Shown: piece by piece, positions 2 to 41,735 of the stretch | Position numbering within the stretch: position 1 is the first letter of the stretch | How the letters are laid out: each line of letters starts with the position of its first letter | From: an uncultured Rhodospirillaceae bacterium | GTDB lineage: Bacteria > Pseudomonadota > Alphaproteobacteria > GCA-2731375 | Length of the DNA: 64,000 bases | Assembly: GCA_964631725.1 (NCBI GenBank) | Contig: CAZVYX010000016.1 | Coordinates: 36,773-100,772, forward strand | Direction: 5' to 3' | Program-made: the position numbers and the translations under genes | Notes under the pieces: model-generated | Told to the model about the DNA's origin: nothing | What the model saw: the letters and a program-made list of their open reading frames with translations, nothing else | Databases searched by the model: none

Positions 2-466
2 GGTCCGTTCAGCGTCAGCTTCGACGCCTGGAGCCCGTTCAACACCGGCCTGCAGCTCGATTCGGTGATCGATAACGTCGCCGCGCATATCCTTTTTGCC
101 GATGGCGTCGCCGGTGCCGTCGATACCGCCGCCACTTGTACCGCCTTCACCGCCGATCAGGCCGGCAACACCCGCACGCGCCTCTCCAATGGTTTCCAGA
201 TCTTCCCCGGCAGCGTGCCGATCTTCCGCAACAGCACCCTGATCGGCGGCATTGGTGTCTCCGGCGACGGCATCGATCAAGACGACATGGTATCCTTTCT
301 TGGCACCCACGACGCAGGTCAGTCGCTGGGGACCGGTGTCGGCAATGCGCCGACCGGCGTCCGCGCCGATAACCTGGCGCCCCAGGGCGTGCACCTGCGC
401 TATGTCAGTTGTCCTTTCAAACCATTTCTGGGATCCCGTGAGCGCAATGCCTGCCGCAACAAATAG
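2..466 (+). CDS. C-terminal part of a GlcG/DUF336 (HbpS-like heme-binding) family protein; the 5' end lies outside the window
   Basis: The ORF is open from the window edge and reads '...TLIGGIGVSGDGIDQDDMVSF...', which resembles the conserved GxGVSGG..DE core of DUF336/GlcG proteins. Confidence 0.4.
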   Translation, partial: GPFSVSFDAWSPFNTGLQLDSVIDNVAAHILFADGVAGAVDTAATCTAFTADQAGNTRTRLSNGFQIFPGSVPIFRNSTLIGGIGVSGDGIDQDDMVSFLGTHDAGQSLGTGVGNAPTGVRADNLAPQGVHLRYVSCPFKPFLGSRERNACRNK

Positions 467-2378
467 CCGGCCCCTGGCCCTGGCCGCCTGCCTCTGCGCC
501 CTATGGGCGATACCGGGGACGGCACTGGCGGGCAAGGAGCGCATTGAGGCGGCATTGATGCCGGCCAAGCCGACGGCGCCGGCTGCGGTCCTGGCGCCGA
601 CGATGGTGCCGCCGCCACGGCCGGTACTGGTTCAGACCACGGACACGGATGCCGCCGTGGCGCAGCGGATGGCACAGAACAGCCGCCGCGTACCTGGCCG
701 CGCCCCGTCCAGGGAACGCAAACGGGAGCGGCGCTTCGACCCCAACGCTGTCGAGCCGCCGCAGCCCAACGTGCCACGCGAGTTCCTGCCGGTGATGGAC
801 CGCTGGCGCATTGTCGATGCCGTCGGCGTGACGCCGAAATGGTGGGATCCCTATAACCAGAGCTACATAAAGGGCGACCGTCCGGTGTTCGGCAAGGATT
901 GGTTCTTTAACCTAGCGGCAATTTCAGACACGGTGATCGAGCCGCGCCTGCTGCCTACGCCGCTCAGTCCAAGCGGCGCCGTCGGATCGGGCAGGAACGA
1001 TGTCTTTGGCGACGGCGATCAGCTGTTCATGAACCAGAACATCATTCTCGGCTTGTCGCTGATCAAGGGCGACACCGCCTTTCGCCCGCCGGATATCGAG
1101 GCCCGCGTGACGCCGGTCTTCAGCTACAATCGCCTGAAGGTTAAGGAACTGGGTGTCACCCACCGCGACCCGAGGAAAGGCAAGACGCGAAACGACAGTT
1201 TTCTCGGCCTGCAGGAAGCGTTCCTGGACTATCACATCGGCAACCTATCGGACCGCTACGACTTCATTTCGGTTCGCGCCGGCATCCAGCCATTTTCCAC
1301 GGATTTCCGCGGCTTTCTTTTCCAGGACAACCAGTTGGGCGTCCGCCTGTTCGGCAACCACGACAACAACATCTTCCAGTATAACCTGGCCTGGTTCCGG
1401 CGCCTCGAGAAGGACACCAACAGCGGCCTCAACGACGTTGGCAAGAGGCTCCGCGACGACGATATTTTCATCACCAACCTATATATCCAGGACCTGCCGG
1501 TGCGTGGCTTTGTCTCGCAAGCATCCCTGGTGCACAACCGCAACCGCGAAGGCAGCAGAACGTTCTACAACGACAACAAGTTCCTCGAGCGGCCAGCCTC
1601 GTTCGGCGACGAGCGATTCCGGGATTACGATGTGACCTATCTCGGATTTAACGGTGATGGCCATTTCGGCCGCGCCAACCTGACGCTTTCCGCCTACTTC
1701 GCCTGGGGCACGGACGACCACAACCAGATTGCTTCTTCGGCACCGGGGGAGAAGTCGGATATTCGCGCCCAGTTCTTTGCTTTCGAGCCATCGGTTGATT
1801 TCGACTGGATCCGGCTGCGCGGCTCGATACTCTATGCCAGCGGCGACAGCGACCCGTTCGACGACAAGGAGGAGGGGTTCGATGCGATATTCGAGAATCC
1901 GCAGTTTGCCGGCGGCGATACCAGCTATTGGATCCGCCAGGGCATTCCGCTGATCGGCGGCGGCGGCGGCGCGCTGACGCAGCGCAACGGCGTGCTGGCC
2001 AGCCTGCGTTCATCGAAGGAGCACGGCCAGTCGAATTTCAACAATCCCGGCCTGATCCTGTTCGGCGGTGGCGGCGACTTTGATCTGTTGCCGGAATTGC
2101 GAATGTCGTTCAACGTCAACCGGCTGATGTTCGACAATACCTCGAACTTGGAGGCGTTGCGCAACCAAGGCCAGATCGACGAGAGTATCGGCGTCGATGT
2201 TTCGCTGTCGCTGATCTATCGGCCGTTGATGATCCAGAACGTCATCATGCGCCTGTCCGGCGCGGTCCTCTTCGCCGACGACGGCTTCAAGGATTTGTAT
2301 GCCTCCGCTGCCACGCCGGACGGCTCTTCCGATGACCGTTACTATTCGATCCTTGGCAATCTTATCCTGGTCTTTTAG
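447..2378 (+). CDS. Outer-membrane beta-barrel protein (porin-like), putative partner of the downstream decaheme cytochrome
   Basis: Sec signal peptide MPAATNSRPLALAACLCALWAIPGTALA. About 640 aa rich in alternating amphipathic stretches, with aromatic and Gly residues. The C-terminal residue is Phe (...GNLILVF*), typical of Bam-dependent OM barrels. The stop at 2378 abuts the cytochrome start. Confidence 0.6.
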   Translation: MPAATNSRPLALAACLCALWAIPGTALAGKERIEAALMPAKPTAPAAVLAPTMVPPPRPVLVQTTDTDAAVAQRMAQNSRRVPGRAPSRERKRERRFDPNAVEPPQPNVPREFLPVMDRWRIVDAVGVTPKWWDPYNQSYIKGDRPVFGKDWFFNLAAISDTVIEPRLLPTPLSPSGAVGSGRNDVFGDGDQLFMNQNIILGLSLIKGDTAFRPPDIEARVTPVFSYNRLKVKELGVTHRDPRKGKTRNDSFLGLQEAFLDYHIGNLSDRYDFISVRAGIQPFSTDFRGFLFQDNQLGVRLFGNHDNNIFQYNLAWFRRLEKDTNSGLNDVGKRLRDDDIFITNLYIQDLPVRGFVSQASLVHNRNREGSRTFYNDNKFLERPASFGDERFRDYDVTYLGFNGDGHFGRANLTLSAYFAWGTDDHNQIASSAPGEKSDIRAQFFAFEPSVDFDWIRLRGSILYASGDSDPFDDKEEGFDAIFENPQFAGGDTSYWIRQGIPLIGGGGGALTQRNGVLASLRSSKEHGQSNFNNPGLILFGGGGDFDLLPELRMSFNVNRLMFDNTSNLEALRNQGQIDESIGVDVSLSLIYRPLMIQNVIMRLSGAVLFADDGFKDLYASAATPDGSSDDRYYSILGNLILVF

Positions 2379-2390
2379 GTGCCCTTCGAT

Positions 2391-5300
2391 ATGCGCATTC
2401 TATCCATTGTCATCATCATGCTTACGGCGCCATTGCTGTCATTGCAGCCGGCGCTGGCCGCCGGTGGACCCGAGAAACCCAGGCACGTCGAGTTCAGACC
2501 GACCCCCCCGGCGCCGCGGTCCCAATTGCCCGACCAGGCAATGCGCAAGAGCGCCGGCTGCGTTTCGTGCCACACCAAGGTCGACTCGCTGTCGATGCAC
2601 GAAAGCCCCGGCGTCATCCTGGGCTGCACCGATTGCCACGGCGGCAATGCCAACGTTTTCAAGAAGGACTTCGCCACTTACGTGACCGCGAAGCTGGATG
2701 CGCACGTGCAGCCAACCCTGCCGCAAACCTGGGGTCATCCCAGCGCTGCCAATCCGAAGCACAGCTACACGCTGCTGAACCGCGAGGCCCCGGAGTACAT
2801 CCGTTTTGTCAATCCCGGTGACCTGCGGGTCGCGCGCGAGGCCTGCGGCAGCTGCCATCTGCCGATCATCCAGGCCTCCGAACGCAGCCTGATGTCGACG
2901 GGCGCCATGCTGTGGGGCGGCGCCGCATACAACAACAACATCCTGCCGTTCAAGCGCTATATTCTGGGCGAGGGCTATACCCGCGAGGGCGAGGCGGCGG
3001 CGCTGGTCAACCCGGTGGCCCCGGATGCCAAGCTGACCGCGCGCGGCGTGCTGCCGCAGCTATATCCGCTGCCAGCCTGGGAGACAATTCCGCCGGGCGA
3101 CATCTTCCGGGTGTTCGAGCGCGGCGGCCGGAACATCCTTAATCTGTTCCCGGAGATTGGCTTGCCCAATGCCGCCGGCCAGTTGCAGCGGCTGGAAGAG
3201 CCGGGACGCCCGGATATCCGGCAGTCGAACCGCGGCCCCGGTACCGGCCTTAGGATCGCCGTGCCGGTCATCAATATCACCAAGACCCGGCTGAACGACC
3301 CTTTTCTCTGGTTCCTCGGCACCAATGATGGGCCGGGCGACTACCGCTCGTCCGGCTGTTCGGCCTGCCATGTGGTCTACGCCAATGACCGCGACCCGCG
3401 GCACTCCGGTCCGTATGCAAAGTTCGGCCATACCGGCAAGTCGCAGAGCGTCGATCCGACGATTCCGAAGAACGAGGAAGGCCATCCGCTCAAGCATAGC
3501 TTCTCGAACGCCATTCCGACCAGCCAGTGCATGATCTGCCACATGCACCAGCCGAATGTGTTCGTGAACACCTACCTCGGCTACACGATGTGGGATTACG
3601 AATCGGACGCCCCCTTCATGTGGCCGGAAAAGCAGCGCTACCCGACAGCCGCGGAGATGCATAAGATTCTCAGCCGCAACCCGGAGGAGGCGTCGATACG
3701 TGGCAAATGGGGCGACGTCGAATTCCTCAAGGAGGTCAGCAAGCTCAATCCGAAACTGAAGAACACTCAGTTTGCCGACTATCACGGCCATGGCTGGAAC
3801 TTCCGCGCTATCTTCAAGAAGAACCGCAAGGGCGACCTGCTGGATGCCGAGGGCAAGACCGTGGAACCGGACGACCCCGACAAGTTCAAGAAGGCGGTGC
3901 ACATGTCGTCGATCCATCTCGATGTCGGCATGCATTGCGTCGACTGCCATTTCTCACAGGACTCTCATGGCAGCGGACATATCTATGGTGAGGTGCAGGC
4001 GGCGATCGAGATCCGTTGTATTGACTGCCACGGCACCCCGAAAAAGGCGCCGACGCTTCTGACCAGTGGGCCGGCGGCGCCGCCCAACGGCCACGATCTG
4101 GAGCTGCTGCGCACCCCGGATGGACGAAAGCGTTTTAAATGGCGCGGCACCCAATGCGACCGGCCCCTCGAAGAGGCGCGTGACTGCAAGCTCTATCAAC
4201 GCGCCTCGCTCGATCCGGACCTGGAGTGGGAGGTCAGCCTGCTGCGCGACATCGTCGACCCGAAGCACACCGCATTTAACGCCAAGGCGGCGCGCGCCAA
4301 ATTGATGTCCAGCGATCCGCTGGGCCTGAAATGGGGCCCTGGAGTTGATCCCAAGGATCTGGCGCACAAAAGCGACAGCGAATTCGAGTGCTTTACCTGC
4401 CACACGGCCTGGACAACCTCCTGCGCCGGATGTCACCTGCCGATCCAAGCAAATTGGAAGACGGAGCGACATCACTATGAGGGCGGTGAGACCCGCAACT
4501 TCGCTACCTACAACCCGCAGGTGGTGCGCGATCAAATGTTCCAGATCGGCATTCACGGCAGCGTCAAGAACAAGACCATCGCGCCGGTGCGTTCGTCGTC
4601 GGCGCTTATTCTATCATCGCAGAACATCAACCGCGAGCGTATCTACGTTTCGCAGCCGCCGATCGCCGCCAGCGGCTATTCCAGCCAGGCCTTCGCGCCG
4701 CACTTTGCGCACACGGTACGCAAGACGGAAACCAAGACCTGCACCGACTGCCATTTGTCCAAGGAGAACGACAATAACGCGATCATGGCGCAACTGCTGC
4801 TGCATGGCACGAATTTCGTGAATTTCGTTGGGCCGTTTCAGTGGGTCGGCGAAGCCGGTGGCATCGAAGGCGTGAAGGTGGCAGAATTCGATGAGCCACA
4901 GGCGGTGATCGGCAGCTACCTGCACCGCCATGCCTTTCCCGATTGGTACCAAGCCCATCAGGACCGTGGTCAGCAGCTGGAGACCGCGCACGGCCATCGC
5001 GGTGATGAAAGCCGCTGTTTGCAGCACCGTGGCGAGTACCTCTACGTTGCCCAGGGCAAGGACGGAATGCGGGTCTACGATGTCGCCTCGATCGCCAACA
5101 AGGGCATCTCCCAACGTATTATCACCGCGCCATTCTCGCCGTTGGGCCACGACACCCACATCGCCTCGGCCAATGCCACTTGTGTCGTGCTGCCGACCAA
5201 TCAGCCAATTCACCCGGACCGCAACCAGGGTGACCTGATGCGCAAGACCAACGAGGAGCAGCCCTTTCATCCGATCTATGATTACGCTTTCATCACCGAT

Positions 5301-6194
5301 ACCGAGGAAGGCCTGATCCTGACCGACGTCAACACCTTGGCCGACGGCAAGCCGCGCAACAACTACCTGACGCGGGCGCTGACCTGGAACGAGGGCGGCA
5401 TTCTGAACGGTGCCCGCCACCTGACCATCGCCGGCCATTTCTTCTATGTCGCGACTCCGCGCGGCATCGTCGTGCTCGACATGGACGATCCGCTGAAGCC
5501 GAAGGTGCTGGCTTCCATCGAACTGCCGGATGCCCGGGCCAGCGCGCTGCAGTTCCGCTATTTGTTCGTTACCGACGGCGGCGGGTTGTCGGTGGTCGAT
5601 GTCACCAATCCGTCCGAACCGCGCGTCGTACCGGGGGCCAGGATCGCGCTGCAGGATGCCCGGCGCGTCTATTTGGCGCGGACCTTCGCCTATGTCGCAG
5701 CCGGGTCGCAGGGTATCGCCATCGTCGATATCGAGCGGCCGGAGCAGCCGAAGCTTTACCAGCTCTATAACGCCGATGGCAAAATCGCCGACGCCTACGA
5801 TGTTACCGCCGCCTCGACCAACGCCTCGCTGTTCGCCTATGTTGCCGATGGCGCCAACGGCCTGCACGTGGTGCAGTTGACCGCGCCGGACACGCAGCCC
5901 CGGTTCTACGGCTTCAGCCCGGATCCGAAACCTGAGCTGATCGCCACCCGGCGCACCCGGTGGCCGGCGTTATCCCTCTCCAAGGGGTTGGATCGCGATC
6001 GCGCGGTCGACGAGACCGGCCACCAGATCGCCATTTTCGGCCGCATGGGCTCGCGCCCGTTCAACATGCAGGAGATGCAGCAGCTCTACCTCGACAAGGG
6101 CAAGCCGTGGTTTGTCGACGATGAGCCCCGCATGCGGAATTTGCTGCCGGCGCGCCGCCCGGCCGCCGGAAGTCCCAGGGCAAGCCTCGATTGA
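2391..6194 (+). CDS. Secreted decaheme c-type cytochrome with a C-terminal LVIVD-repeat beta-propeller domain
   Basis: Signal peptide MRILSIVIIMLTAPLLSLQPALA. Ten CxxCH motifs (CVSCH, CTDCH, CGSCH, CSACH, CMICH, CVDCH, CIDCH, CFTCH, CAGCH, CTDCH) in the first ~800 aa. The C-terminal ~400 aa carry repeated 'Y/FVAxGxxGxxVxDV(T/S)NPxxP' units typical of LVIVD repeats. An alternative GTG start lies at 2379. Confidence 0.8.
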   Translation: MRILSIVIIMLTAPLLSLQPALAAGGPEKPRHVEFRPTPPAPRSQLPDQAMRKSAGCVSCHTKVDSLSMHESPGVILGCTDCHGGNANVFKKDFATYVTAKLDAHVQPTLPQTWGHPSAANPKHSYTLLNREAPEYIRFVNPGDLRVAREACGSCHLPIIQASERSLMSTGAMLWGGAAYNNNILPFKRYILGEGYTREGEAAALVNPVAPDAKLTARGVLPQLYPLPAWETIPPGDIFRVFERGGRNILNLFPEIGLPNAAGQLQRLEEPGRPDIRQSNRGPGTGLRIAVPVINITKTRLNDPFLWFLGTNDGPGDYRSSGCSACHVVYANDRDPRHSGPYAKFGHTGKSQSVDPTIPKNEEGHPLKHSFSNAIPTSQCMICHMHQPNVFVNTYLGYTMWDYESDAPFMWPEKQRYPTAAEMHKILSRNPEEASIRGKWGDVEFLKEVSKLNPKLKNTQFADYHGHGWNFRAIFKKNRKGDLLDAEGKTVEPDDPDKFKKAVHMSSIHLDVGMHCVDCHFSQDSHGSGHIYGEVQAAIEIRCIDCHGTPKKAPTLLTSGPAAPPNGHDLELLRTPDGRKRFKWRGTQCDRPLEEARDCKLYQRASLDPDLEWEVSLLRDIVDPKHTAFNAKAARAKLMSSDPLGLKWGPGVDPKDLAHKSDSEFECFTCHTAWTTSCAGCHLPIQANWKTERHHYEGGETRNFATYNPQVVRDQMFQIGIHGSVKNKTIAPVRSSSALILSSQNINRERIYVSQPPIAASGYSSQAFAPHFAHTVRKTETKTCTDCHLSKENDNNAIMAQLLLHGTNFVNFVGPFQWVGEAGGIEGVKVAEFDEPQAVIGSYLHRHAFPDWYQAHQDRGQQLETAHGHRGDESRCLQHRGEYLYVAQGKDGMRVYDVASIANKGISQRIITAPFSPLGHDTHIASANATCVVLPTNQPIHPDRNQGDLMRKTNEEQPFHPIYDYAFITDTEEGLILTDVNTLADGKPRNNYLTRALTWNEGGILNGARHLTIAGHFFYVATPRGIVVLDMDDPLKPKVLASIELPDARASALQFRYLFVTDGGGLSVVDVTNPSEPRVVPGARIALQDARRVYLARTFAYVAAGSQGIAIVDIERPEQPKLYQLYNADGKIADAYDVTAASTNASLFAYVADGANGLHVVQLTAPDTQPRFYGFSPDPKPELIATRRTRWPALSLSKGLDRDRAVDETGHQIAIFGRMGSRPFNMQEMQQLYLDKGKPWFVDDEPRMRNLLPARRPAAGSPRASLD

Positions 6195-6201
6195 AGCCGC
6201 G

Positions 6202-6229
6202 CCCGACACGGGCCGCGCGCCGGTGTCGG
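6202..6229. terminator. GC-rich hairpin between the convergent cytochrome genes (putative bidirectional terminator)
   Basis: Inverted repeat CCGACAC(N13)GTGTCGG lies immediately after the 2391-6194 stop and before the 3' end of 6243-7607. Confidence 0.35.
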
Positions 6230-6242
6230 TAGGAATCCGCCG

Positions 6243-7607
6243 CTACGGAATGAGGCTGCCGAACGCCTGCAGGGCGGCGGTGAACTGTTTCGAATCGTAG
6301 TTGTCGTCGCTTTCGAGCGCCTTGTAGCAGGCGTCCAGCGCCTTCTGCAGCGCCGCCCGCTGGGTCTTGTCCAGGGCGCCGATGTTGCCCATCGCCGCCA
6401 TGATGGTACCGAGCGACATGGTCGCCTGTTCGGCACCGGAATAGTCGGTGTACTGGTTGTCCAGGCCATATTTCACCGTGCCCTTGAGCAGCGCGGTCAT
6501 GTCGGCCTTGCCGAACTTGTGCGATGAAAAGCGCTTGATCAGTTGCTCGGCGTTCGCGCGCAGGGCCGTGGCCTCTTTTGTCAGATTGCCCTGGCCCTCG
6601 CGGCTTGCCTTATGCAGGGCGAGACCGCGTTGACGAAGCTCCTTGCCAAGCTGTGGATCAAGGTGATTGGTGATCACCTGCAGCATCAGCAGATTGGCAT
6701 CCTGCAAGCGCGGAATACCTGGCCCGAGGCCAACCGTGGTACGCGGCTGCCAGCGCTGCTTATTCAGGCTGCGATGACAGCTGTGACAGTCGAACAGCAC
6801 CAACTCGGGGAACACGCCATCACGCCCCATCTTTGGGTCGAGCAGCGCGTCCAGCATGGTCTTTAGCGCCATCGCCTGGCCGATCGCCCAGACCTGGACG
6901 CCGTTCCAGTTGCCCTTCCGTTTGCGGTAGTCGGCGTCAACCTTGTAGTGCGCCGGCTGCAGCGCCGTGAAGGTGTCGAGCTCGAAACTCATGCGCGGAT
7001 GGCCCGCGCCCATGATGCGGTGGCTGACGAAACGCATTTGGTCACCGAAATGGCACGACAGACATAGCCGCGCCCGTTCGATCGGTTTGGCTGTGGAATA
7101 AAGACCGTTCGCGACGTTGTTCTTGTGTGAGGCGTTGGCCGCGATATGCGCGCCAATCCAGCGTCCGGCCCCGCCATGGCAGGCTTCGCAGCCGACCCCG
7201 TCGGTTATCTGGAAGGTTCGGTGGCGCAGCTTTTTCGGCACATTGTCGGCGTGACAGTCGAGGCAGATGTCGGCGGTATGGGCGTCGGGCAGTCCCAAAT
7301 TCGCGGCAATCTTCTTGGAACGTTTGTTCAGCAGCATGTCGTAGGCCTTGGCGTGCTTGTCCTTGCTCTGCCAGGTCACGAATTCGTTCTGCAGGATCGG
7401 TGAATTGGGCCAACTCTTCACCGCGCCGTGGCAGGTGCTGCCCGCGCAGGATGCAACACCCATATGAAATTCCTTGTCCGCAAGCGGCAATAGCATCTCC
7501 GCCGCCGAGGCTCCAAAACTCATCAACGCGCTGGAAAAAATCGTAAGCGCGCCTAGCAGAATGATTGAGCGCCGCACCGTCACACCCCCCGTGTTTCCCA
7601 GACCCAA
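6243..7607 (-). CDS. Periplasmic multiheme (penta-heme) cytochrome c
   Basis: N-terminal signal peptide (RRSIILLGALTIFSSALMSFGASAAE). Heme motifs CAGSTCH (CX4CH-like), CLDCH, CEACH, CLSCH and CHSCH. Confidence 0.7.
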   Translation of the reverse strand: MGLGNTGGVTVRRSIILLGALTIFSSALMSFGASAAEMLLPLADKEFHMGVASCAGSTCHGAVKSWPNSPILQNEFVTWQSKDKHAKAYDMLLNKRSKKIAANLGLPDAHTADICLDCHADNVPKKLRHRTFQITDGVGCEACHGGAGRWIGAHIAANASHKNNVANGLYSTAKPIERARLCLSCHFGDQMRFVSHRIMGAGHPRMSFELDTFTALQPAHYKVDADYRKRKGNWNGVQVWAIGQAMALKTMLDALLDPKMGRDGVFPELVLFDCHSCHRSLNKQRWQPRTTVGLGPGIPRLQDANLLMLQVITNHLDPQLGKELRQRGLALHKASREGQGNLTKEATALRANAEQLIKRFSSHKFGKADMTALLKGTVKYGLDNQYTDYSGAEQATMSLGTIMAAMGNIGALDKTQRAALQKALDACYKALESDDNYDSKQFTAALQAFGSLIP

Positions 7608-7780
7608 TATTCTGCACGCGGCCGGTTTGCCCGCTCTGCAGGCACCTGAATTGACCCGACGGTGCAGCTAAGCTTCGCACCAAATCCACTGGCCTGACGC
7701 CGCGATTTCGACACCTTGTTCGCGTCGTCACTTCCCTTACTTCGGAATTATGGCATGGCCGCGATGCCATTGCCACCACG

Positions 7781-8626
7781 ATGCGTTTTCAATGTCCGAG
7801 CTACGATTTAGTATTCGCTTTACCGGCCCCTTACCGCTGCGGCATAGTGGCGGACGCATCAAAAAATGACGGCCGCAATGTGACTTGGGATCTATACGTT
7901 GCCATCGTGCTGGTTCTCGCCGCGCCCTTCGTGGGGCGATTTCTTGCCATGCTGGTGGTGCGGTATCCGAACTGGCGCGGCATTTGGTTCGCCCGCTCGG
8001 CTTGTAGTCGCTGCGCCGTACCGCTATCGGTGCGCGCGCAACTTCCGCTTCTTGGCTGGCTTCTTGATGGTGGCCACTGCCCCGCGTGCGGTCAGCGGAC
8101 ACCCGGTCTGGTGCTCCTTTTCGAGATTGCCGCGCTGGCAATCGCCATATGGTCGCTCGCAGTGTTCGACGGCATCGCGGCGGTTTCCGCCGCCATGCTG
8201 GGCTGGCTGCTGATTGCCGCCGCGGCGATCGATCAGCGCACGATGCTGCTGCCTGACAGCTTGACCGCCGCCGCCCTATTGCTGGGATTTGCTGTTGCCG
8301 CCGCCGCCGGTCCCAATGCGTTGTTGAGTGCTCTTGCCGGGGCCGCCGCCGGCTTTGCCGCCTTCGCCCTGATCGGTGCGTTCTTCAGGCGCTTGCACGG
8401 ACACGACGGCCTTGGCCTCGGTGATGCCAAATTGCTGGCGGCGGCGGGCGCATGGGTCGGCTGGCAGTCGCTGCCGTCGTTGGTTTTGATCGCCGCGAGC
8501 ACGGCCATCGTGGTGATCCTATTGACGGGATTGGTAGGTGATGGCGGCATACGGCGGCGGCTACCATTTGGGCCGCACCTGGGATTGGCGGCCTGGCTTA
8601 CCCTGCTCTACCGGCCGTTGCCATGA
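7781..8626 (+). CDS. gspO: Type IV prepilin leader peptidase (A24 family, GspO/PilD)
   Basis: N-terminal tetra-Cys zinc motif (CSRCAVPL...CPACGQ). Conserved GLGDAKLLAAAGAWVGW motif, multiple TM segments. The exact start is uncertain; a later GTG is possible. Confidence 0.8.
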   Translation: MRFQCPSYDLVFALPAPYRCGIVADASKNDGRNVTWDLYVAIVLVLAAPFVGRFLAMLVVRYPNWRGIWFARSACSRCAVPLSVRAQLPLLGWLLDGGHCPACGQRTPGLVLLFEIAALAIAIWSLAVFDGIAAVSAAMLGWLLIAAAAIDQRTMLLPDSLTAAALLLGFAVAAAAGPNALLSALAGAAAGFAAFALIGAFFRRLHGHDGLGLGDAKLLAAAGAWVGWQSLPSLVLIAASTAIVVILLTGLVGDGGIRRRLPFGPHLGLAAWLTLLYRPLP

Positions 8627-8636
8627 GGAGGTGCCG

Positions 8637-10280
8637 TTGACTGCCTCGGCGGTGAAACAACTGATCGACAGTGGTTTGCTTGCCGAGAGCGACCTGGAGC
8701 GCGCGCGCCTTGCCGCCGAGGCGATGTCAACACCGGTGCACAGCGCGCTTGTCGGGCTTGGCCTGGTTGCCGAGGACGCCATGGCCCGCACCCTGGCCGA
8801 CAGTCAGTCGCTGCCGCTGGTCGCTGACAACGACTATCCCGACGAGGCTGTGCTGCCGGACCTATTGACCGAGTCTTTCCTGCGCACCTGCCAGGTGCTG
8901 CCGTTGTCGGCGAATGAGCACACGGTCACGGTGGCGCTTGCCGACCCGCTTGATCGCGATACCATCCGGGCGCTGGAGATGCGCCTCGACCGCAGTGTGC
9001 GGCCGGCTGTCGCCACACCGTCGCAGTTGCGGCGCCATTTTGATCGAATTTACGGCGAAGCCGCCGGCCGCCAGGGCACGGGACCGGGCGAGGAAGGCCG
9101 CGTCTACATCGAGCGATTGCAGGACCAGGTCAGCGACGCCCCGACCGTCAAGCTCGCTAACCGGCTGATCGAACAGGCGGTGATGCAACGCGCCTCCGAC
9201 ATTCACCTGGAGCCGGATGGCGACGATTTGCGGGTGCGATTCCGGATCGACGGCCTGCTGCGCGAGATCCGACGCCTGCCGCTGAGCGACCATGCACCGC
9301 TGATCAGCCGTATCAAGATCATGTCGGGTCTCGACATTGTCGAGCGGCGGTTGCCGCAGGATGGCCGCACGCAGCAAGTGGTCGAAGGCCGCCGCATTGA
9401 TATGCGGGTCTCCTGCCTGCCGATGATGCACGGCGAAGGCATGGTGATCCGGCTGCTGGACCAGAATCGGGCACCATTGGAGCTGGCCGATCTGGGACTG
9501 GACAGCGATCTGCAGGGGCGCCTGGCGGCCGCCCTGGATGGCGGCAGGGGTATCGTGCTGGTGACCGGCCCAACCGGCAGCGGCAAGACCACCACCCTTT
9601 ATGCCGCGCTGCAGCGCTTTAACGACCCGCAAAACAAAATCATTACCGTCGAGGACCCGGTGGAGTTCCAGTTGCCCGGTATCAGCCAAATTCAGGTTCG
9701 GCCCGAGATCGGCCTCGGCTTCAGCCGCGTCTTGCGCTCGGTGCTGCGGCACGATCCGGATACGTTGATGATCGGCGAAATCCGCGATCTGGAAACGGCC
9801 GAGATCGCGGTACAGGCGGCGCTGACCGGTCACCTGGTGTTGTCGACACTGCATACCAACAGCGCGCCTGACGCGCTTACGCGCTTGGCCGACATGGGCC
9901 TCGATCCCTACCGCATCACCGCCTCTGTCGCGGCGGTCGTGGCACAGCGTCTGGTGCGTACCCTGTGCGAACACTGCCGGACGCCGGCCCCCGACGACGT
10001 CAATGGCACCGACGATGTCGGGGGCGGGGCGACAGTTTACGAGGCGGCCGGATGCGAACGGTGCGGCGGCACCGGTTACAATGGACGCACCTTGATCGCC
10101 GAAGTGATGGTTATTGACGAACCTCTGCGCAGCCTGATCATGCAACGTGGGGAGCCGCGGGCGATTGAAAAGGCGGCGCGTGCCGGAGGCCTGCTGCCGA
10201 TGCGCCAGAACGGTCTCGACAAAGTTGCGCAGGGAAAGACGAGCATCGCCGAATTGATGCGCGTGCTGGGGAGCGGCTAG
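8637..10280 (+). CDS. gspE: Type II secretion ATPase GspE
   Basis: Walker A VTGPTGSGKTTTLYAAL. C-terminal tetra-Cys motif CEHCR...CERCGGTGYNGR. GspE N1 domain. Probable TTG start at 8637 preceded by GAGGAGG; the ORF is open from 8538. Confidence 0.9.
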   Translation: MTASAVKQLIDSGLLAESDLERARLAAEAMSTPVHSALVGLGLVAEDAMARTLADSQSLPLVADNDYPDEAVLPDLLTESFLRTCQVLPLSANEHTVTVALADPLDRDTIRALEMRLDRSVRPAVATPSQLRRHFDRIYGEAAGRQGTGPGEEGRVYIERLQDQVSDAPTVKLANRLIEQAVMQRASDIHLEPDGDDLRVRFRIDGLLREIRRLPLSDHAPLISRIKIMSGLDIVERRLPQDGRTQQVVEGRRIDMRVSCLPMMHGEGMVIRLLDQNRAPLELADLGLDSDLQGRLAAALDGGRGIVLVTGPTGSGKTTTLYAALQRFNDPQNKIITVEDPVEFQLPGISQIQVRPEIGLGFSRVLRSVLRHDPDTLMIGEIRDLETAEIAVQAALTGHLVLSTLHTNSAPDALTRLADMGLDPYRITASVAAVVAQRLVRTLCEHCRTPAPDDVNGTDDVGGGATVYEAAGCERCGGTGYNGRTLIAEVMVIDEPLRSLIMQRGEPRAIEKAARAGGLLPMRQNGLDKVAQGKTSIAELMRVLGSG

Positions 10281-10283
10281 GCG

Positions 10284-11507
10284 ATGCCGTGGTTCCAGTA
10301 CCGTGCGGTGGATGCCGGAGATCACGTGGTGGAGGCCTCGATTGAGGCAGACGACCGCGACACGGCGCTGGCGCGGCTGCGCGGCGAGGGCTTGCTGCCG
10401 CTGCGTCTGGACCCTGTCGGCGACGCCGGGGGCCGGTCCTGGCGTGTGCAACTGCGGCGCTGGCTCAGCTACCTCGACCCTGACGCCGGGCGGTTGCCGC
10501 CGCCGGCGATTACCGCCTTCGTGCGGGAGCTCAGTATGCTGCTTGATGCCGGCATTGGCGCCGACCGGGCCTTGCTGATCATCGCCCGCTCGGCGGAACG
10601 GCCGATACTGGCGCAGCTCGCCACCGACCTGCGCCAGCGTGTCCGCGCCGGCGACAGCCTGGCGGATGCGCTCGACCAGGATTCGGGGCACTTCGATGCG
10701 GTGTTCCGTGCCACGGTTCGCGCCGGCGAAGCCGGCAGCGCCCTGACCGATGCGCTGGCGCGCCTCGCGGATTGGCGGGAGCAGCGCGAATATATGCTGG
10801 CTGCGGTCAGGTCAGCGCTGATCTATCCCTGTTTCCTGATCGTCGCGGCGCTGATGTCCTTCCTGGTGCTGCTGCTGTTCGTGGTGCCGCAATTTGAGGC
10901 GCTGTTCCAGCAGACTGGCGCCGAGGTGTCGCTGTTCACCGGCGCCCTGCTCGCTGTTTCCGGCTTTCTGCGCAGCTACCTACCGGTGATCGTCGTATTG
11001 GCGCTGGTGCTCTGGCTGCTCGCGCGCCGGCGCCGCACCGCATGGACCGGCCTCGCGGCGCGGCTGCCGATCTTGCGCGGTTTCCTGCGGAAGGTGGCGA
11101 TTGAGCGCGCGCTTAGCATTATGGCGATCCTTTTTGCCAGCCGTATGCCGGCACCGGCGGCATTGGATTTGGCGGCGGAGGCGGTCGGCGATCCGGGGTT
11201 GGCATCATCGCTGCGGCAGACGGCGGCGCGGGTTCGTGAAGGCGCCCGCCTAAGCGACAGCCTGCGCCGGACCGGCGACTTGCCGGAGCTGGTGGTCGAG
11301 ATGATCTCGGTCGGTGAGGATGCCGGCTCGCTTCAGGAGATTCTGGAGCGCCTTGGCGAGCGACTGCGGGCCGACGTCGAACAGGGCTTACGCCGGCTGA
11401 TCGCGGTGATCGAGCCGGTGCTGATCATTTTGACGGGAATCCTGGTTGCTTCTATCATTCTGACCCTGTTGTCGGCGATCGCGAGCGTTCATGCCCTGGT
11501 ATACTGA
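10284..11507 (+). CDS. gspF: Type II secretion inner-membrane platform protein GspF
   Basis: Duplicated GspF/PilC domains and three TM segments. Located immediately after gspE. Confidence 0.9.
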   Translation: MPWFQYRAVDAGDHVVEASIEADDRDTALARLRGEGLLPLRLDPVGDAGGRSWRVQLRRWLSYLDPDAGRLPPPAITAFVRELSMLLDAGIGADRALLIIARSAERPILAQLATDLRQRVRAGDSLADALDQDSGHFDAVFRATVRAGEAGSALTDALARLADWREQREYMLAAVRSALIYPCFLIVAALMSFLVLLLFVVPQFEALFQQTGAEVSLFTGALLAVSGFLRSYLPVIVVLALVLWLLARRRRTAWTGLAARLPILRGFLRKVAIERALSIMAILFASRMPAPAALDLAAEAVGDPGLASSLRQTAARVREGARLSDSLRRTGDLPELVVEMISVGEDAGSLQEILERLGERLRADVEQGLRRLIAVIEPVLIILTGILVASIILTLLSAIASVHALVY

Positions 11508-11955
11508 AACCGAAATCAGACAGCCGCAAAGGGCGTGTGGTCAGCAAGGCTTCACGCTCATCGAACTGCTGGTTGTTCTGGTCATTCTCGGCCTGCTGAT
11601 TGGTTTGGTGACGCCGACCGTGATCAGCTATCTCGGTCGCGCCAAGATCGATGTGGCTCGCATCCAAATAGACAGCCTGGCGACGGCGCTGGACCTATAC
11701 CGGTTGGATGTCGGCCGCTATCCCAGGCAGGCCGAAGGCCTTGCCGCGCTTACCAGGCGCCCGGCCGGCGAGGAACACTGGAACGGACCCTATCTGAGGG
11801 GCGATGTGCCGCTGGATCCCTGGCACCACGCCTACCTCTACAAGCGGCCGAAGAGCGGTGCCGGCGGTTACAGCCTGCAGAGCCTCGGCGCCGACGGCAA
11901 GGCGGGCGGCGATGGCGAGGATGCCGACATCATGGTCCAGTCGTCTGCGTTATGA
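11491..11955 (+). CDS. gspG: Major pseudopilin GspG
   Basis: Prepilin signal ...QQG|FTLIELLVVLVILGLL and the GspG core (DxxRYP, NGPYL). Confidence 0.9.
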   Translation: MPWYTETEIRQPQRACGQQGFTLIELLVVLVILGLLIGLVTPTVISYLGRAKIDVARIQIDSLATALDLYRLDVGRYPRQAEGLAALTRRPAGEEHWNGPYLRGDVPLDPWHHAYLYKRPKSGAGGYSLQSLGADGKAGGDGEDADIMVQSSAL

Positions 11956-12398
11956 CCGGCCATGATGGGCAGCGCGGCTTCACGCTAATTGAATTGGTCG
12001 TGGTGATTGCGCTGCTGGCACTGGTGGCCGCCATCGCCGCTCCGGCCGCCGGTCGTCTCTTTGATCTATCGTCGTCGGTTGATGACGCCAAACGCCTGGC
12101 GATGGCGATGCGGCAGGCGCGAATGACGGCGATCAGTGAAGGGCAGCCGCAATCTGTCCACATCGATCCGGTGCGCCGCCGTTGGCGACATGGCGACAGC
12201 GTTGGGACATTTGATGGTGCCGCGTCAATTTCCGCCGTGGTGCCGCCCGCCGGGCGCCGTCTGAACGGAGTGTCCGCAATTGTATTCCTGCCTGACGGTA
12301 GCGCCACCGGCGGACGCATCGTGCTGGGCGAGGGCCATCGCCAACAAAGCGTCGCCGTCGACTGGCTGACCGGGACCGTCTCGATTGCCGGCCCGTAG
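11952..12398 (+). CDS. gspH: Minor pseudopilin GspH
   Basis: Starts ATGA-overlapped with the gspG stop. Leader MTGHDGQRG|FTLIELVVV. Confidence 0.75.
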   Translation: MTGHDGQRGFTLIELVVVIALLALVAAIAAPAAGRLFDLSSSVDDAKRLAMAMRQARMTAISEGQPQSVHIDPVRRRWRHGDSVGTFDGAASISAVVPPAGRRLNGVSAIVFLPDGSATGGRIVLGEGHRQQSVAVDWLTGTVSIAGP

Positions 12399-12786
12399 GC
12401 AAGCCGGCTTCAGCCTGCTGGAGGTCTTGGTCAGCCTGGTTGTGGTGGCACTGACGGTTGGCGCCGCCATTGGCGTGTACGGTCAGGCCGCCGAAAGCGC
12501 CGGGCGTGGCGAGCGGGCGCTGCAGGCCTTGATGACGGCGCAATCGCTCCTGGCCGAGCACGGCACGGCCATCCCACTGAAGAGCGGCACCAATTACGGG
12601 AAAACAGAGGCAGGTCTGCGTTGGCGGAGTATCGTCTCACCCTATGAAGGCCTCGACCGGGACCAGATGCGCCGCCTGCCGGTAAAGCCGTTCACCGTCG
12701 GCGTCACCGTTTCCTGGGGTGATGCAAAGGCCCAGTCACTGACGTTGCGGGCCTTGAAGATCACGGAGCCGGCAGATGCCCGATAG
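12385..12786 (+). CDS. gspI: Minor pseudopilin GspI
   Basis: Leader MPARRQAG|FSLLEVLVSLVV; size ~130 aa. Confidence 0.75.
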   Translation: MPARRQAGFSLLEVLVSLVVVALTVGAAIGVYGQAAESAGRGERALQALMTAQSLLAEHGTAIPLKSGTNYGKTEAGLRWRSIVSPYEGLDRDQMRRLPVKPFTVGVTVSWGDAKAQSLTLRALKITEPADAR

Positions 12787-13384
12787 GCGGCGACAGGCCG
12801 GCTTCACGCTGCTGGAATTGGTTGTCGGCATCGCCCTTCTGGCCCTGATTACCACGCTGCTGGTCAACGTCCTCGGTACCGGTATCGCCGCTACGAAGCA
12901 AGTGGACCGGCGCACCGAGCGGATTGAGCGGGCGCACCACGTACATAGGCTGTTGCGCGAGCGGCTTGAAACGGTGCGTCCCCTGGACTGGGAAATTGGC
13001 GAGGGGCGACAGCAGGTATTCGCGGGCGAGGCTGACACCATGCGGTTCATCACCACGGCGCCGCCCTGGCCCGACCTTGGCGGCCTGGTGCTGGATTGGC
13101 TGCACCTGAGCGGCGGTCGTCTGGTGCTGACGGAACGGCGCTTTATAGGGGCCGACGACGCGCTGAACGGCAATGATGCCGAAAATGGCACGACGCTGGC
13201 GCGCGACATTGGCACGCTGCATATCGACTATTATGGCCAGGTGGAGCGCCGGCGCGCGGCTTGGCACGGCTTCTGGAACCAGCGGGAACTACCGGACCTG
13301 ATCCGCGTACGAATCGCTTGGCGCGATGGCGAAAAATGGCCCGACCTTGTCGTGCATCCCCGGCTCGCACGACAGCCGAGGTGA
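12776..13384 (+). CDS. gspJ: Minor pseudopilin GspJ
   Basis: Leader MPDRRRQAG|FTLLELVVGIALL; size ~200 aa. Confidence 0.75.
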   Translation: MPDRRRQAGFTLLELVVGIALLALITTLLVNVLGTGIAATKQVDRRTERIERAHHVHRLLRERLETVRPLDWEIGEGRQQVFAGEADTMRFITTAPPWPDLGGLVLDWLHLSGGRLVLTERRFIGADDALNGNDAENGTTLARDIGTLHIDYYGQVERRRAAWHGFWNQRELPDLIRVRIAWRDGEKWPDLVVHPRLARQPR

Positions 13385-13390
13385 CGGTGA

Positions 13391-14320
13391 ATGGTTGACA
13401 TGAGCAACATCAGGCAGCGACAAGGTAGCGTGCTTTTGGTGGTGTTGTGGCTGCTGGTGATGCTGGCATTGATTGCCCAAGGCGTGGCGCAACGGTCGCG
13501 CAGCCACCTAACGCTGGCGCGGGCCCAGATCGATCTGGCGCAGGAGCGCCTGCGCGCGCAGGCCGGCGTGTTGCACGGGGCGTTGCTGCTGCTTGATCGG
13601 GGGCGGCCTCTACCGCCACGCCAAAGCCTGACAGGCGGGAATGCGCCAGCCATTATCGGCGCCGCGGTTGATATCGAGATCATTGACGAATGCGGCCGCG
13701 TCGACCTGAACACCGGCCACGCCGACATGATCGCCGCCCTGTTCAACGGTTTTGGGCTGGCCGATCGTTCCAGGCAACAGGCAAACGCGGTCCTCGACTA
13801 CCGCGATCCCGGCAGCCGGCCCCGGCCGCAGGGCGCCGAACATGACGCCTACCGCGCCGCCGGGCGCTTCGACGGCCCCCGCAACGGCCCATTCGAGACG
13901 GTTGCCGAACTGCACCAGGTGTTGGGTCTCGACGCTGAAACCGTGGCGCGGCTGACACCGTACTTTACCGTTGACTGCCTCAATGCTGGCGTCGACCCGA
14001 TGGCCGCCAGCGCGCCGCTGCTGCGGCTGTTGCCCTCGTGGGCCGCGCCTGACTCGCTGCAGAGCTTTCTGCATGCCCGAGATGACGCGTCACGCAACGG
14101 CGGCGGCGGGATGCGTTGGCCGGCCGGACTGGGGAAGTATGCGGAGCCCTCGGACGGTCACGCCTACGGTATCAGGGCGACGACCCGCGGCCCGGCCCCC
14201 GCCGTTAGCTGGTCGGCGGTGGTGTGGCTTGGTGGCGGCGATGGCCGGCCACTTGCATTCCGCACCTGGGAACCGGATAGGACGAATATCCTCGTTGCCA
14301 AGGACGGTGACGATAATTGA
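13391..14320 (+). CDS. gspK: Minor pseudopilin GspK
   Basis: N-terminus QRQGSVLLVVLWLLVMLALIA, typical of GspK. Size ~300 aa; follows gspJ. Confidence 0.7.
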   Translation: MVDMSNIRQRQGSVLLVVLWLLVMLALIAQGVAQRSRSHLTLARAQIDLAQERLRAQAGVLHGALLLLDRGRPLPPRQSLTGGNAPAIIGAAVDIEIIDECGRVDLNTGHADMIAALFNGFGLADRSRQQANAVLDYRDPGSRPRPQGAEHDAYRAAGRFDGPRNGPFETVAELHQVLGLDAETVARLTPYFTVDCLNAGVDPMAASAPLLRLLPSWAAPDSLQSFLHARDDASRNGGGGMRWPAGLGKYAEPSDGHAYGIRATTRGPAPAVSWSAVVWLGGGDGRPLAFRTWEPDRTNILVAKDGDDN

Positions 14321-14395
14321 CGGTGGTGGTTTTAATCTCGCGTCGAATCAAGATAGGATAGTCATTTACTGAACTCGTACGTCTGAGGGGAATAG

Positions 14396-16075
14396 ATGTT
14401 CGTGAACGGTCGGTTGCTGGTATTGGGTATCCTTCTGGGTACGCTATCCGGATGTGCTTCGCTTGATGTCGCCGCTTGGTTCGGCGGTGAAGCTAAAGAC
14501 ACCCCGCGCCCACCGACGCAACAGCAGCAGGCCGCAGCCTCGAACGAAGCGCCAGATGGCTGGATTGTCGACACGGTGAGTGGCTGTGCGACCAGCAACC
14601 CGCAGCCGACGGCAGGCGAAAGCATTCGCTGGTTCGGCGATTGCAGTAACGGCAAACTAAGCGGTCACGGCACCTTGATATGGTACCGGGACGGCCACGA
14701 AACCGAGCGCAACGAAGGCGGCTTCCGGGGCGGAGAACTGCATGGCGAGGTGGTGACGACGTTTGACGATGGCACCTATATCGTCGGCGAATATGTTGAC
14801 GGGCAGCGCAACGGCAATTTCATGATACGCCGGCCTGACGGCTCGCACCTGCACGCGCTCTACGAGGGCGGAGAACTGTCGGCACGGCGCGTCGCCAGCG
14901 CCGGGGAAGTCGATGCCTGGCTGATGGCCCGGGCCCGCCAGGTCGCCGAGGCGGCCGAGGCCGCGCCTGGGCGCGAAGTGCGCCAAGTGGCCGCCGCGCC
15001 GGTATCGCAAACGATTGCGAACAGGCCGCCGCCCGCCGCAAGGGTCGACGCAACGAAGGCCGTGCCGGTTGTGTCAGTGCCACAACAGACGGTAGTAGCC
15101 GTCACGCCAGCGTCCAGCCCCGCTCCAGTATCATCACCCTTGGGCAAAGCTAATGGCGACCGTGGCAATATTGTCGTGTCTTCTGCTTCCGTGGCGAACG
15201 CCTACCAGCCCGCCGCCTACTACCCGCGTGCGATGTACCCGCTCGACAGCGTCACCCAGACCGCCAGGCTATATGCCGGCCGCGATGGTCCGTGGGTTGC
15301 CGGTCCACGCACTGGTGGCGCGTCGCCGGCCGGCGGCGGCACCATCGTCATTTCCTCTGCCTCGGTGACGACCGAGTATGCGAACCGGGGCGGCGCCGTG
15401 CCGCGGTCGTACCATGTGCCGCAACAGCTCGCCATGGCCACCTACCAACCGGTCGCCCGTTCGCCGCGCGCCGTAATCGAACTTGAAAACACCGCTCAGT
15501 CCGCCGTGACATACGCTGGCCGCGCCGCCGGTGCGCCGCCTCGCCGATCCAGGGATCTGACACCGTCGGTATCGCCTGATACGTTGTTCAGCCAGGGTTA
15601 TCGGCTGGAACTCGCCGGTCAACGGCAGGCCGCGGCACGCGTTTATGACGAGGTCCTGCTGCAGCATCCATCGGCACCATCGGCGCTGTTGGCGAATGCC
15701 CGTCTGGTGCAGCTGCGCCAGCCGCAACCGGTACAACGGATGCAAGCCTCGGTGGTCGCGGTCAACTCGCCTACGCCGAACGGCTCACCGCGCCCGGCGT
15801 CATTGGCACCCAGCCGTGCCTCGCCGGCATCGGCGCTACATCGCCAAGTTTGCAGTCGCGGTGGCCTCTATGAAAGTGACAGCGGCTGGTGCGGCACCGT
15901 GACCGGTGAGCAGGGGCCATACTACTGGGTCCGCGTCGACGGGGTTCATTTGCGCGGCTTTGCCACCATCGGCATCACCCGCTCGACCTGCACGGGCAAC
16001 AACTTCCTGAACTGGTTCTCGCTCGGCTCGTCGGTCAAGGTGCCGAAACAGTGCATGACATTTCAGGCGGGCTGA
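14396..16075 (+). CDS. Lipoprotein with MORN repeats, an Ala/Pro-rich linker and a Cys-containing C-terminal domain (candidate T2SS-associated protein or cargo)
   Basis: Lipobox LGTLSGC. Repeated YxDGxxxEGxxxxGxxHG units (GHGTLIWYRDGHETERNEGGFRGGELHGEVV...). Low-complexity A/P/S region. C-terminal Cys residues. Confidence 0.55.
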   Translation: MFVNGRLLVLGILLGTLSGCASLDVAAWFGGEAKDTPRPPTQQQQAAASNEAPDGWIVDTVSGCATSNPQPTAGESIRWFGDCSNGKLSGHGTLIWYRDGHETERNEGGFRGGELHGEVVTTFDDGTYIVGEYVDGQRNGNFMIRRPDGSHLHALYEGGELSARRVASAGEVDAWLMARARQVAEAAEAAPGREVRQVAAAPVSQTIANRPPPAARVDATKAVPVVSVPQQTVVAVTPASSPAPVSSPLGKANGDRGNIVVSSASVANAYQPAAYYPRAMYPLDSVTQTARLYAGRDGPWVAGPRTGGASPAGGGTIVISSASVTTEYANRGGAVPRSYHVPQQLAMATYQPVARSPRAVIELENTAQSAVTYAGRAAGAPPRRSRDLTPSVSPDTLFSQGYRLELAGQRQAAARVYDEVLLQHPSAPSALLANARLVQLRQPQPVQRMQASVVAVNSPTPNGSPRPASLAPSRASPASALHRQVCSRGGLYESDSGWCGTVTGEQGPYYWVRVDGVHLRGFATIGITRSTCTGNNFLNWFSLGSSVKVPKQCMTFQAG

Positions 16076-16081
16076 TAAGTA

Positions 16082-17302: not shown

Positions 17303-17350
17303 CGGTTATGGGTGTCCCAAATCCTGTAATTTGCCGGTACTAGAAGAGCT

Positions 17351-19519: not shown

Positions 19520-19629
19520 GCGGCCCTTCCATCGAATTTAGAGCGCTTCAGCGGTAATCGGAAATGCTCTGATTTGTGCAATTTGATAGCCTAGGTGCTA
19601 TCGCGGCGGGGTTCAATGGACAAAGAGGC

Positions 19630-20690: not shown

Positions 20691-20705
20691 GACCCGCCGC
20701 CGCCG

Positions 20706-39595: not shown

Positions 39596-39602
39596 GTCCG
39601 AC

Positions 39603-40676: not shown

Positions 40677-40768
40677 GATTGCCTCATCCACTCTCGATAC
40701 GCCACGCTTGCTCTCGTTAAGGTAATGCGGCAAACCTGCTGGCTTCGCGGCTTAGCATAGCAGTTTGC

Positions 40769-41722: not shown

Positions 41723-41735
41723 TTCAGGCAGCAGT

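Follow-up and report, generated by a model that had tools for sequence, protein, structure and literature searches.

The first genes of a 64,000-nucleotide stretch of DNA from an uncultured Rhodospirillaceae bacterium (contig CAZVYX010000016.1; hereafter the window) belong, on the best reading, to a conserved electron-transfer system that crosses the cell envelope and is fed from the cytoplasm, and make up its outer half. The genes of this system are numbered g1 to g8. Those in the window encode an outer-membrane barrel (g6), a decaheme cytochrome fused to a beta-propeller (g7), a pentaheme cytochrome (g8) and the end of an HbpS-like protein (g5); those upstream encode a cytoplasmic flavoprotein (g1), an inner-membrane protein (g2) and a membrane-anchored decaheme cytochrome (g3). 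Counted from cofactor motifs, the inventory from the cytoplasm to the outer membrane comprises FAD, several Fe-S clusters, two b-type hemes and 25 c-type hemes. We give about an even chance to the proposal that this machinery is a reductase system at the outer membrane, driven by NAD(P)H and conserving no energy.

A preliminary description, made from the window alone, had delimited a module at positions 447–7607 and interpreted it as a new type of extracellular electron-transfer conduit. Its account of the individual genes was accurate. The barrel gene lies at 447–2378 and encodes a signal peptide and a terminal Phe (...LILVF); its TAG stop codon directly abuts the GTG start of g7, a secreted protein of 1271 amino acids (aa) with ten CXXCH motifs; the second multiheme cytochrome, the five-heme, c554-like g8, is convergent to this pair on the minus strand; and a complete type II secretion system (T2SS), with all core components identified, stands directly beside them. 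The boundaries of the module had to be redrawn. The window cuts the operon: positions 2–466 hold the 3′ part of another operon member, g5, which overlaps the start of g6 by 20 nucleotides (nt). The genes in the window thus form the distal half of a conserved six-to-seven-gene cluster, the proximal half of which lies beyond the left window edge. The whole operon was seen on JGI metagenome contigs from this organism (locus L001), reached through an exact match to the barrel (P0121); an exact look-up of the full g7 sequence returned no matching record. In L001 the order is g1, g2, g3, g4, g5, g6, g7, followed by g8 in convergent orientation. The same gene order occurs in a genome whose g7 is 77% identical, and many Beta- and Gammaproteobacteria carry the order g2-g3-g5-g6-g7-g8-g1 on a single strand.

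Completeness was counted over 37 loci covered with enough flank on both sides. The genes g1, g2, g3, g6 and g7 were each present in all 37, g5 in 36 and g8 in 29, so that the synteny search proposed in the preliminary description found not only the barrel and decaheme genes kept together but the larger cluster conserved with them. In 81 of 84 loci the decaheme gene is immediately preceded by the barrel gene, the two being separated by a median of +3 nt; this pairing is far beyond chance, and the two form a genuine, tightly coupled pair. Where g8 is present, it mostly follows g7 immediately and in the same orientation (median junction −7 nt). The small gene g4 (132 aa) has a patchy distribution, and all-against-all clustering of neighbouring open reading frames (ORFs) found no conserved neighbour beyond the cluster genes. 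A scan for g7, with one genome per species, found the cluster in at least 567 species, mostly Proteobacteria. The g7 family comprises at least 8000 clusters at 90% identity, and the barrel and g8 families, with at least 7800 and at least 5300 clusters, are distributed like it. Identity to g7 is 66–89% among the relatives listed and 61–73% in the genome loci, across Alpha-, Beta- and Gammaproteobacteria. Despite this spread over species and thousands of metagenomic protein clusters, every component of the cluster is annotated "hypothetical," all g7 clusters included. Cultured carriers exist, namely Limnobacter alexandrii, Fontimonas, Zavarzinia, Oceanibacterium hippocampi and Sinimarinibacterium thermocellulolyticum (Limnobacter genomes carry it at loci L028, L030 and L039), which makes the cluster directly testable.

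The inner part of the system identifies the likely source of electrons. The protein g1 combines thioredoxin-reductase-like Pyr_redox_2/3 domains, an NAD-binding Rossmann domain, two cyclic-nucleotide-binding (cNMP_binding) domains and a HydN/DmsB-like Fer4 (4Fe-4S) domain; as it has neither a transmembrane (TM) helix nor a signal peptide, it is assigned to the cytoplasm. In g2, all 41 orthologues keep residues H82, H96, H254 and H268, while W78, W250, S119 and G120 are at least 90% conserved, giving two WX3HX13H motifs (W78-X3-H82-X13-H96 and W250-X3-H254-X13-H268) and the Ser-Gly start of an SGXXG motif (SGIFG in the reference). This combination is the signature that He et al. reported for the PCC3/PCC4 inner-membrane proteins and related to the di-heme-b ferric-reductase domain of NOX/FRE proteins (PMC5566968). 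With its five hydrophobic helices and these motifs, g2 is predicted to be a ferric-reductase-like membrane protein with two b-type hemes; it reaches no Pfam threshold, that of the ferric-reductase domain PF01794 included, and its membership of that family is unproven by sequence. The third protein, g3, has a TM helix at residues 140–158 followed by ten CXXCH motifs in 49 of 49 orthologues. Anchored in the membrane and with about 42 aa per heme, it looks like a wire spanning the periplasm. Its cytoplasmic N-terminus is weakly FHA-like (PF16697, E=0.026), and together with the two cNMP-binding domains of g1 this gives the cytoplasmic ends of the system a regulatory appearance. Against the DmsE-family model TIGR03508, with a cut-off of 192 bits, g3 and g8 score 21–22 bits and g7 has no match.

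The decaheme-propeller protein g7 carries its CXXCH motifs at residues 61, 83, 156, 327, 384, 520, 547, 671, 682 and 788. None of the ten varies in alignments of 17 and of 28 homologues, and ten motifs are present in 69 of 71 orthologues. The propeller is recognised by the LVIVD repeats of PF08309 (63 bits, cut-off 20); the protein has a signal peptide and no lipobox. Its heme domain uses about 83 aa per heme and contains 14 invariant His residues outside the motifs, and many further non-heme residues are invariant in both domains. On account of this spacing, the invariant His residues and the conserved propeller, g7 looks like a terminal enzyme or an obligate partner, not a wire, and its pattern of conservation appears to fit an enzyme or obligate complex better than a fast-evolving surface cytochrome. 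A known catalytic role of the NrfA or HAO type, which the preliminary description had named as a possible counter-indication, was examined, and g7 matches no known catalytic multiheme family: NrfA, HAO/ONR, MccA and OTR were all rejected, as there is no family match and no CXXCK motif. The NrfA/c552 and NrfH models gave E>0.2, and apart from the propeller repeats no NCBIfam or Pfam model came near its cut-off; the best sub-threshold family was ExtM (65 bits, cut-off 800). A g7 profile searched against PDB sequences returned nothing meaningful (best 6lod, E=0.012). An AlphaFold2 model was computed for residues 28–1227, of which only the propeller was usable for structure search; it resembles BtuG, a B12-binding surface protein, and YncE. 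No study of the g7 family was found in the literature on LVIVD heme proteins, Limnobacter multihemes or alginate-export multihemes, and the LVIVD protein of Tenderiales is a different one that carries no heme. Elsewhere in the window, and separate from g7, a 432-aa plus-strand gene encodes another unusual propeller-plus-cytochrome fusion, in which BNR/Sortilin-Vps10-type repeats precede a C-terminal mono-heme cytochrome c (PF13442, PF00034).

The barrel protein g6 consists of a signal peptide (residues 1–27), a disordered, Pro/Ala-rich linker (about 28–145) with a conserved PDRWR motif, and the barrel itself (152–642). Its last residue is aromatic, Y or F, in each of 62 orthologues. The AlphaFold2 model has 18 strands, with a mean confidence (pLDDT) of 66 overall and about 75–90 in the barrel; as modelled, g6 is a narrow substrate-channel barrel of the AlgE/OprD type. 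The family and structure checks proposed earlier came out on both sides. The barrel does not belong to the Mtr/Pio families and has no Cyc2-type heme motif, but the model shows a narrow AlgE/OprD-like channel in place of a cytochrome sheath. Membership of the MtrB/PioB type was rejected since 18 strands do not fit that family of about 26 strands, which sheathes MtrA, and a fused cytochrome-porin of the Cyc2 type was rejected since 61 of 62 orthologues have no CXXCH. Alginate export was rejected as well: the fold fits, but the window protein has no Pfam match, only 4 of 30 barrel orthologues match the AlgE family PF13372 (best E=1.3e-5), and no alg genes are found among the conserved neighbours of the cluster. 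An MtrAB-style wire in a sheath is unlikely for g6 and g7 because of the 18-strand AlgE/OprD-like barrel and the roughly 83 aa per heme of g7. Among the most conserved parts of the barrel is an acidic loop of about 70 residues (about 465–535), modelled with low confidence, which is rich in Asp and Glu and contains a GGGG stretch (consensus …SGDSDPFDDxEEGFDAIFENPQFAGGDTSYW…GGGG…). This loop may be a plug or a cation-binding constriction.

The remaining two proteins are g8 and g5. The pentaheme g8 has four CXXCH motifs and one CX4CH motif, and five motifs are found in 45 of 45 orthologues; a gene call of 446 aa in the protein clusters is 100% identical to it. It matches the cytochrome c554 family PF13435 (40.4 bits, gathering score 20.8), and its sole PDB relative is cytochrome c554 (1bvb, E=2e-4). 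At 19 bits against the 400 of the Nitrosomonas c554 equivalog model, it is not that equivalog. An identification of g8 as PtdA was not supported, with no match to T. tepidum c552, the relative cited for PtdA. Full-length g5, as seen in L001, is secreted, measures about 660 aa and contains three HbpS/GlcG-like domains (PF03928, 83 bits).

Distant relatives indicate that the outer part of the system can stand alone. A search with the heme domain against 1.84 billion representatives returned 605 proteins at E≤1e-30, with full-length relatives at 36–54% identity, and four distant loci (L085, L086, L087 and L088) were examined. In L085, L087 and L088, where g7 is about 41–42% identical, a barrel homologue of 26–43% identity lies directly upstream of the decaheme-propeller gene, and no NAD(P)H, ferric-reductase-like or g3 module was found within 10 kb. 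L087 also has a g5 homologue beside the barrel. As the unit persists in distant relatives without a nearby NAD(P)H module, the barrel and decaheme-propeller, sometimes with the HbpS-like protein, form a module in their own right and, judging from these comparisons, the evolutionary core of the cluster. Further features of the distant loci are the ResB/CcsA system II cytochrome maturation genes that accompany the HbpS-like gene in L087 and a divergently transcribed 684-aa multiheme cytochrome in L085. In L086 (36% identity) the full cluster is present, the barrel-like sequence runs into a called cytochrome gene of 1284 aa, the FAD part of g1 is a 114-aa fragment and transposase genes are near; this locus could be either a barrel-cytochrome fusion or frameshift, or a decaying or misassembled copy.

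For the proposed reductase system, the following path can be envisaged. NAD(P)H would enter at g1 and pass its electrons to FAD and on to the HydN/DmsB-type poly-[4Fe-4S] domain, with the two cNMP-binding domains gating electron entry. The electrons would then traverse the inner membrane through the two b-hemes of g2, run along the ten hemes of the wire-like, membrane-anchored g3 across the periplasm and reach the terminal g7, perhaps by way of the pentaheme g8. At the outer membrane, the partners of g7 would be the triple HbpS-like g5 and the 18-strand barrel. That barrel comes from a family unlike the cytochrome sheaths, and its bore is too small for such a role; most probably it passes a small substrate, a product or a metal ion or other cation, or else docks or anchors the propeller. 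We infer that flow is outward, a direction that comes naturally with an NAD(P)H-type flavoprotein at the inner end; the logic would then be that of NOX/FRE or MsrQ-Fre, and some periplasmic or surface oxidant would be reduced. If NAD(P)H electrons are indeed exported, the cluster would give ordinary aerobic heterotrophs a common redox interface with their surroundings, one that bypasses the respiratory chain. This would bear on iron and manganese cycling, on extracellular reactive oxygen species (ROS) and on the practice of reading metagenomic "porin-cytochrome" matches as metal respiration. A bolder and rather doubtful version holds that the system is a NOX/FRE-like machine across both membranes of aerobic heterotrophs, which delivers NAD(P)H electrons to the surface for the production of extracellular superoxide or the reductive mobilisation of Fe(III) or Mn oxides; if true, it would supply the missing enzyme for the widespread production of extracellular reductants and ROS by marine and freshwater bacteria.

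Several points weigh against the proposed reductase system. The heme domain of g7 was modelled at a pLDDT of only 20–40, so that no active site or heme chain is visible in it. Since the distant relatives have no g1–g3 nearby, NAD(P)H need not be the sole donor. By analogy, g2 could exchange electrons with quinones, instead of or besides g1, an exchange that He et al. suggested for the membrane proteins of PCC3/PCC4 (PMC5566968). Owing to its surface-type propeller and the T2SS beside it in this lineage, g7 may be extracellular, with electrons crossing the outer membrane by another route. The promoters gave no regulatory clue either: when the sequence ahead of the cluster's first gene was scanned at 47 loci, consensus sites for FNR, CRP, Fur, Irr and RirA showed no clear enrichment over random windows, and the excess of FNR sites with at most two mismatches (12 of 47 loci, 33 of 235 controls) could be explained by upstream AT-richness.

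The alternative that survives best is close to what the preliminary description had suggested, namely an extracellular electron-transfer conduit in which the T2SS exports g7 to the surface, minerals, metals or electrodes are reduced there and the barrel carries electrons across the outer membrane. We consider this possible but unlikely. In its favour, the barrel gene neighbours the decaheme gene, an arrangement known from porin-cytochrome clusters, and g3 is long enough to span the periplasm, but the cluster lacks a small cytochrome of the MtrA kind that could run through the barrel, and g7 has about 83 aa per heme. A complete T2SS adjoins the cluster here and in two other alphaproteobacterial lineages; however, it does so in only 3 of the 37 fully covered loci, one of them that of the window's own organism, and in 5 of 84 overall. 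The T2SS was therefore rejected as part of the system, and the functional partnership suggested for it earlier gives way to a lineage-specific context. The missing lipobox of g7 and its conservation, unusual for an outer-surface cytochrome, also speak against this alternative, although what is apparently the same cluster has been filed under porin-cytochrome complexes (PMC13264449). Finally, the donor would be NAD(P)H and not a quinol dehydrogenase, so that the chain would conserve no energy. An NAD(P)H-fed chain argues against both quinone-linked, energy-conserving metal respiration and Fe(II) oxidation, and neither of these two functions, which had been put forward for the locus, is favoured.

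Electron uptake, in which Fe(II), Mn(II) or a cathode is oxidised and electrons pass inward through the barrel and g7, is very improbable. The conserved acidic loop of the barrel could suit cations, and g8 resembles c554, which is an electron acceptor in nitrifiers. However, the chain has an NAD(P)H-type flavoprotein at its inner end, and the reduction of NAD(P)+ from Fe(II), inward against an inside-negative membrane potential, is doubly uphill. Moreover, no terminal oxidase or bc1 link is found among the conserved neighbours. The named host genera appear to be mostly heterotrophs or chemolithoheterotrophs and are not known iron oxidisers. For Limnobacter, such a lifestyle is described in a survey of karst groundwater (PMC13264449). 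On the side of uptake, inward flow has been proposed for PCC3/PCC4, which share the motif set of the inner-membrane protein (PMC5566968). Least probable of all is that g5, g6 and g7 handle a tetrapyrrole or other small ligand (heme or corrinoid capture, or redox-stress sensing) with the heme chain serving only reductive release or degradation: the three HbpS/GlcG-like domains of g5, a family annotated as heme-binding or heme-degrading, the likeness of the propeller to BtuG and YncE and the substrate-channel type of the barrel would suit this role, but 25 c-type hemes and a dedicated NAD(P)H module are far more redox machinery than it needs, and the conserved neighbours include no TonB-dependent receptor, ABC importer or heme oxygenase.

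The neighbouring genes complete the picture of the window (Table 1). The T2SS encodes GspO, E, F, G, H, I, J and K on the plus strand and GspD, an XpsN-like protein, GspM and an L-like protein on the minus strand, the L component being assigned solely from a PilN-domain protein. Two plus-strand ORFs between gspK and gspD, of 559 and 406 aa, have no Pfam match and no heme motifs; the former begins with a lipoprotein-like signal (…LSGCAS). They may be accessory proteins or cargo of the T2SS. Just beyond the T2SS lies a gene for a P-type heavy-metal ATPase, probably a copper exporter, whose N-terminus carries YHS/TRASH and HMBD metal-binding domains. Farther downstream lies a set of cobalamin biosynthesis genes, among them a CbiG fused to a precorrin methylase, and CobN.

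Table 1. Positions of the cluster genes, their distant relatives and neighbouring features (window positions unless a locus is named).
Feature	Position	Strand	Remarks
g1, 826 aa	L001 2388–4868		FAD/NAD(P)H, cNMP and Fe-S domains
g2, 276 aa	L001 4885–5715		five hydrophobic helices
g3, 582 aa	L001 5725–7473		one TM helix, then ten CXXCH
g5, full length	L001 8038–10020		
g5, 3′ end (ORF open at left edge)	2–466	+	PF03928 on the fragment, E=3.5e-7
g6, barrel (ORF A), 643 aa	447–2378	+	signal-like N-terminus, C-terminal ...LILVF
g7, decaheme-propeller (ORF B), 1271 aa	2379–6194	+	ten CXXCH, PF08309
g7 heme domain, residues 28–860	2460–4958	+	10 hemes in ~830 aa
g7 seven-bladed LVIVD/YVTN-type beta-propeller, residues ~817–1197	4827–5969	+	highly conserved
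g8, pentaheme (ORF C), 446 aa, secreted	6243–7583 (7607 at longest ORF)	−	c554-like N-terminal part
Xps-type T2SS	7781–21758	both	context only
559-aa ORF	14396–16075	+	between gspK and gspD
406-aa ORF	16082–17302	+	between gspK and gspD
P-type heavy-metal ATPase	22028–24475	−	
Propeller-cytochrome fusion, 432 aa	25232–26530	+	
Cobalamin biosynthesis genes	~35240–47591		
CbiG-precorrin methylase	35240–37048		
CobN	43827–47591		
Distant locus L085	8187–13636		
Distant locus L086	9452–13855		
Distant locus L087 (GCA_027493525.1)	5449–14329		
Distant locus L088	1468–7873		

Set beside known systems, the cluster recalls MtrCAB, MtoAB and PioAB in that a barrel gene stands beside a decaheme gene and multiheme chains lead from the inner to the outer membrane. 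Membership of the Mtr/Pio group was nevertheless rejected, as the barrel is of the wrong family (18-strand and AlgE/OprD-like, unlike MtrB) and there is no decaheme of the MtrA/DmsE type; that compact cytochrome, with about 33 aa per heme, and the lipoprotein MtrC both lack a counterpart here. Input to Mtr is through CymA and quinol, whereas here it would be from NAD(P)H. In this respect the inner half is closer to NOX/FRE and MsrQ-Fre, which likewise have two bis-His b-heme sites (HX13H on two helices) leading outward from a cytoplasmic NAD(P)H flavoprotein. The flavoprotein part of NOX/FRE is a fused FNR-like domain, while here it is a separate, thioredoxin-reductase-like Fe-S protein; and NOX/FRE and MsrQ pass electrons directly to O2, Fe(III) or MsrP, while here they would go to 25 c-type hemes. 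Compared with AlgE and OprD (Occ), g6 is extended at the N-terminus by a Pro-rich stretch of about 120 residues and has a conserved, long acidic loop, and it is paired with a decaheme gene with no alginate genes near.

The closest resemblance is to PCC4 (PMC5566968), apparently the same as ptdABCDEFG (10.1101/2023.11.21.568154), likewise a hypothetical porin-cytochrome cluster; marine and freshwater Proteobacteria widely carry the one as well as the other. Likened by component types, as given in the published descriptions, both systems have FAD/NAD(P)-binding, cNMP-binding and PF13247 Fe-S components, a 5-TM inner-membrane protein with two WX3HX13H motifs and SGXXG (here g2), a decaheme, a pentaheme and an outer-membrane porin. 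They differ in that the FAD, cNMP and Fe-S parts are fused here in the single 826-aa g1 and that the gene order is not the same. PCC4/ptd has a trio of 4-, 5- and 10-heme cytochromes, in contrast to the 10 (g3), 10 (g7) and 5 (g8) hemes found here with no tetraheme; its pentaheme is NrfA/c552-like with a beta-sandwich, whereas g8 is c554-like; and the second decaheme, fused to an LVIVD propeller, and the triple HbpS-like g5 are additional here. The 2026 karst groundwater survey describes "Group 1" clusters in which a large decaheme gene lies beside that of a porin with some 20 strands and a ferredoxin-NADP+ reductase gene is often near, and reports a porin-cytochrome cluster, of unstated group, in a dominant Limnobacter metagenome-assembled genome (PMC13264449). 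Group 1 is very probably the present cluster, matched by description rather than by sequence. The account given there is one sentence long, with no name, no function and no analysis of the propeller, the HbpS-like protein or the ferric-reductase-like protein. The earlier claim of an undescribed system of a new type thus holds insofar as the cluster falls outside the Mtr, Pio and Geobacter Pcc families, but must be narrowed, because PCC4/ptd shares its types of inner-membrane component and the survey probably saw it. It belongs with the hypothetical porin-cytochrome clusters that have a ferric-reductase-like inner-membrane protein, and its decaheme-propeller and HbpS-like protein distinguish it from PCC4/ptd.

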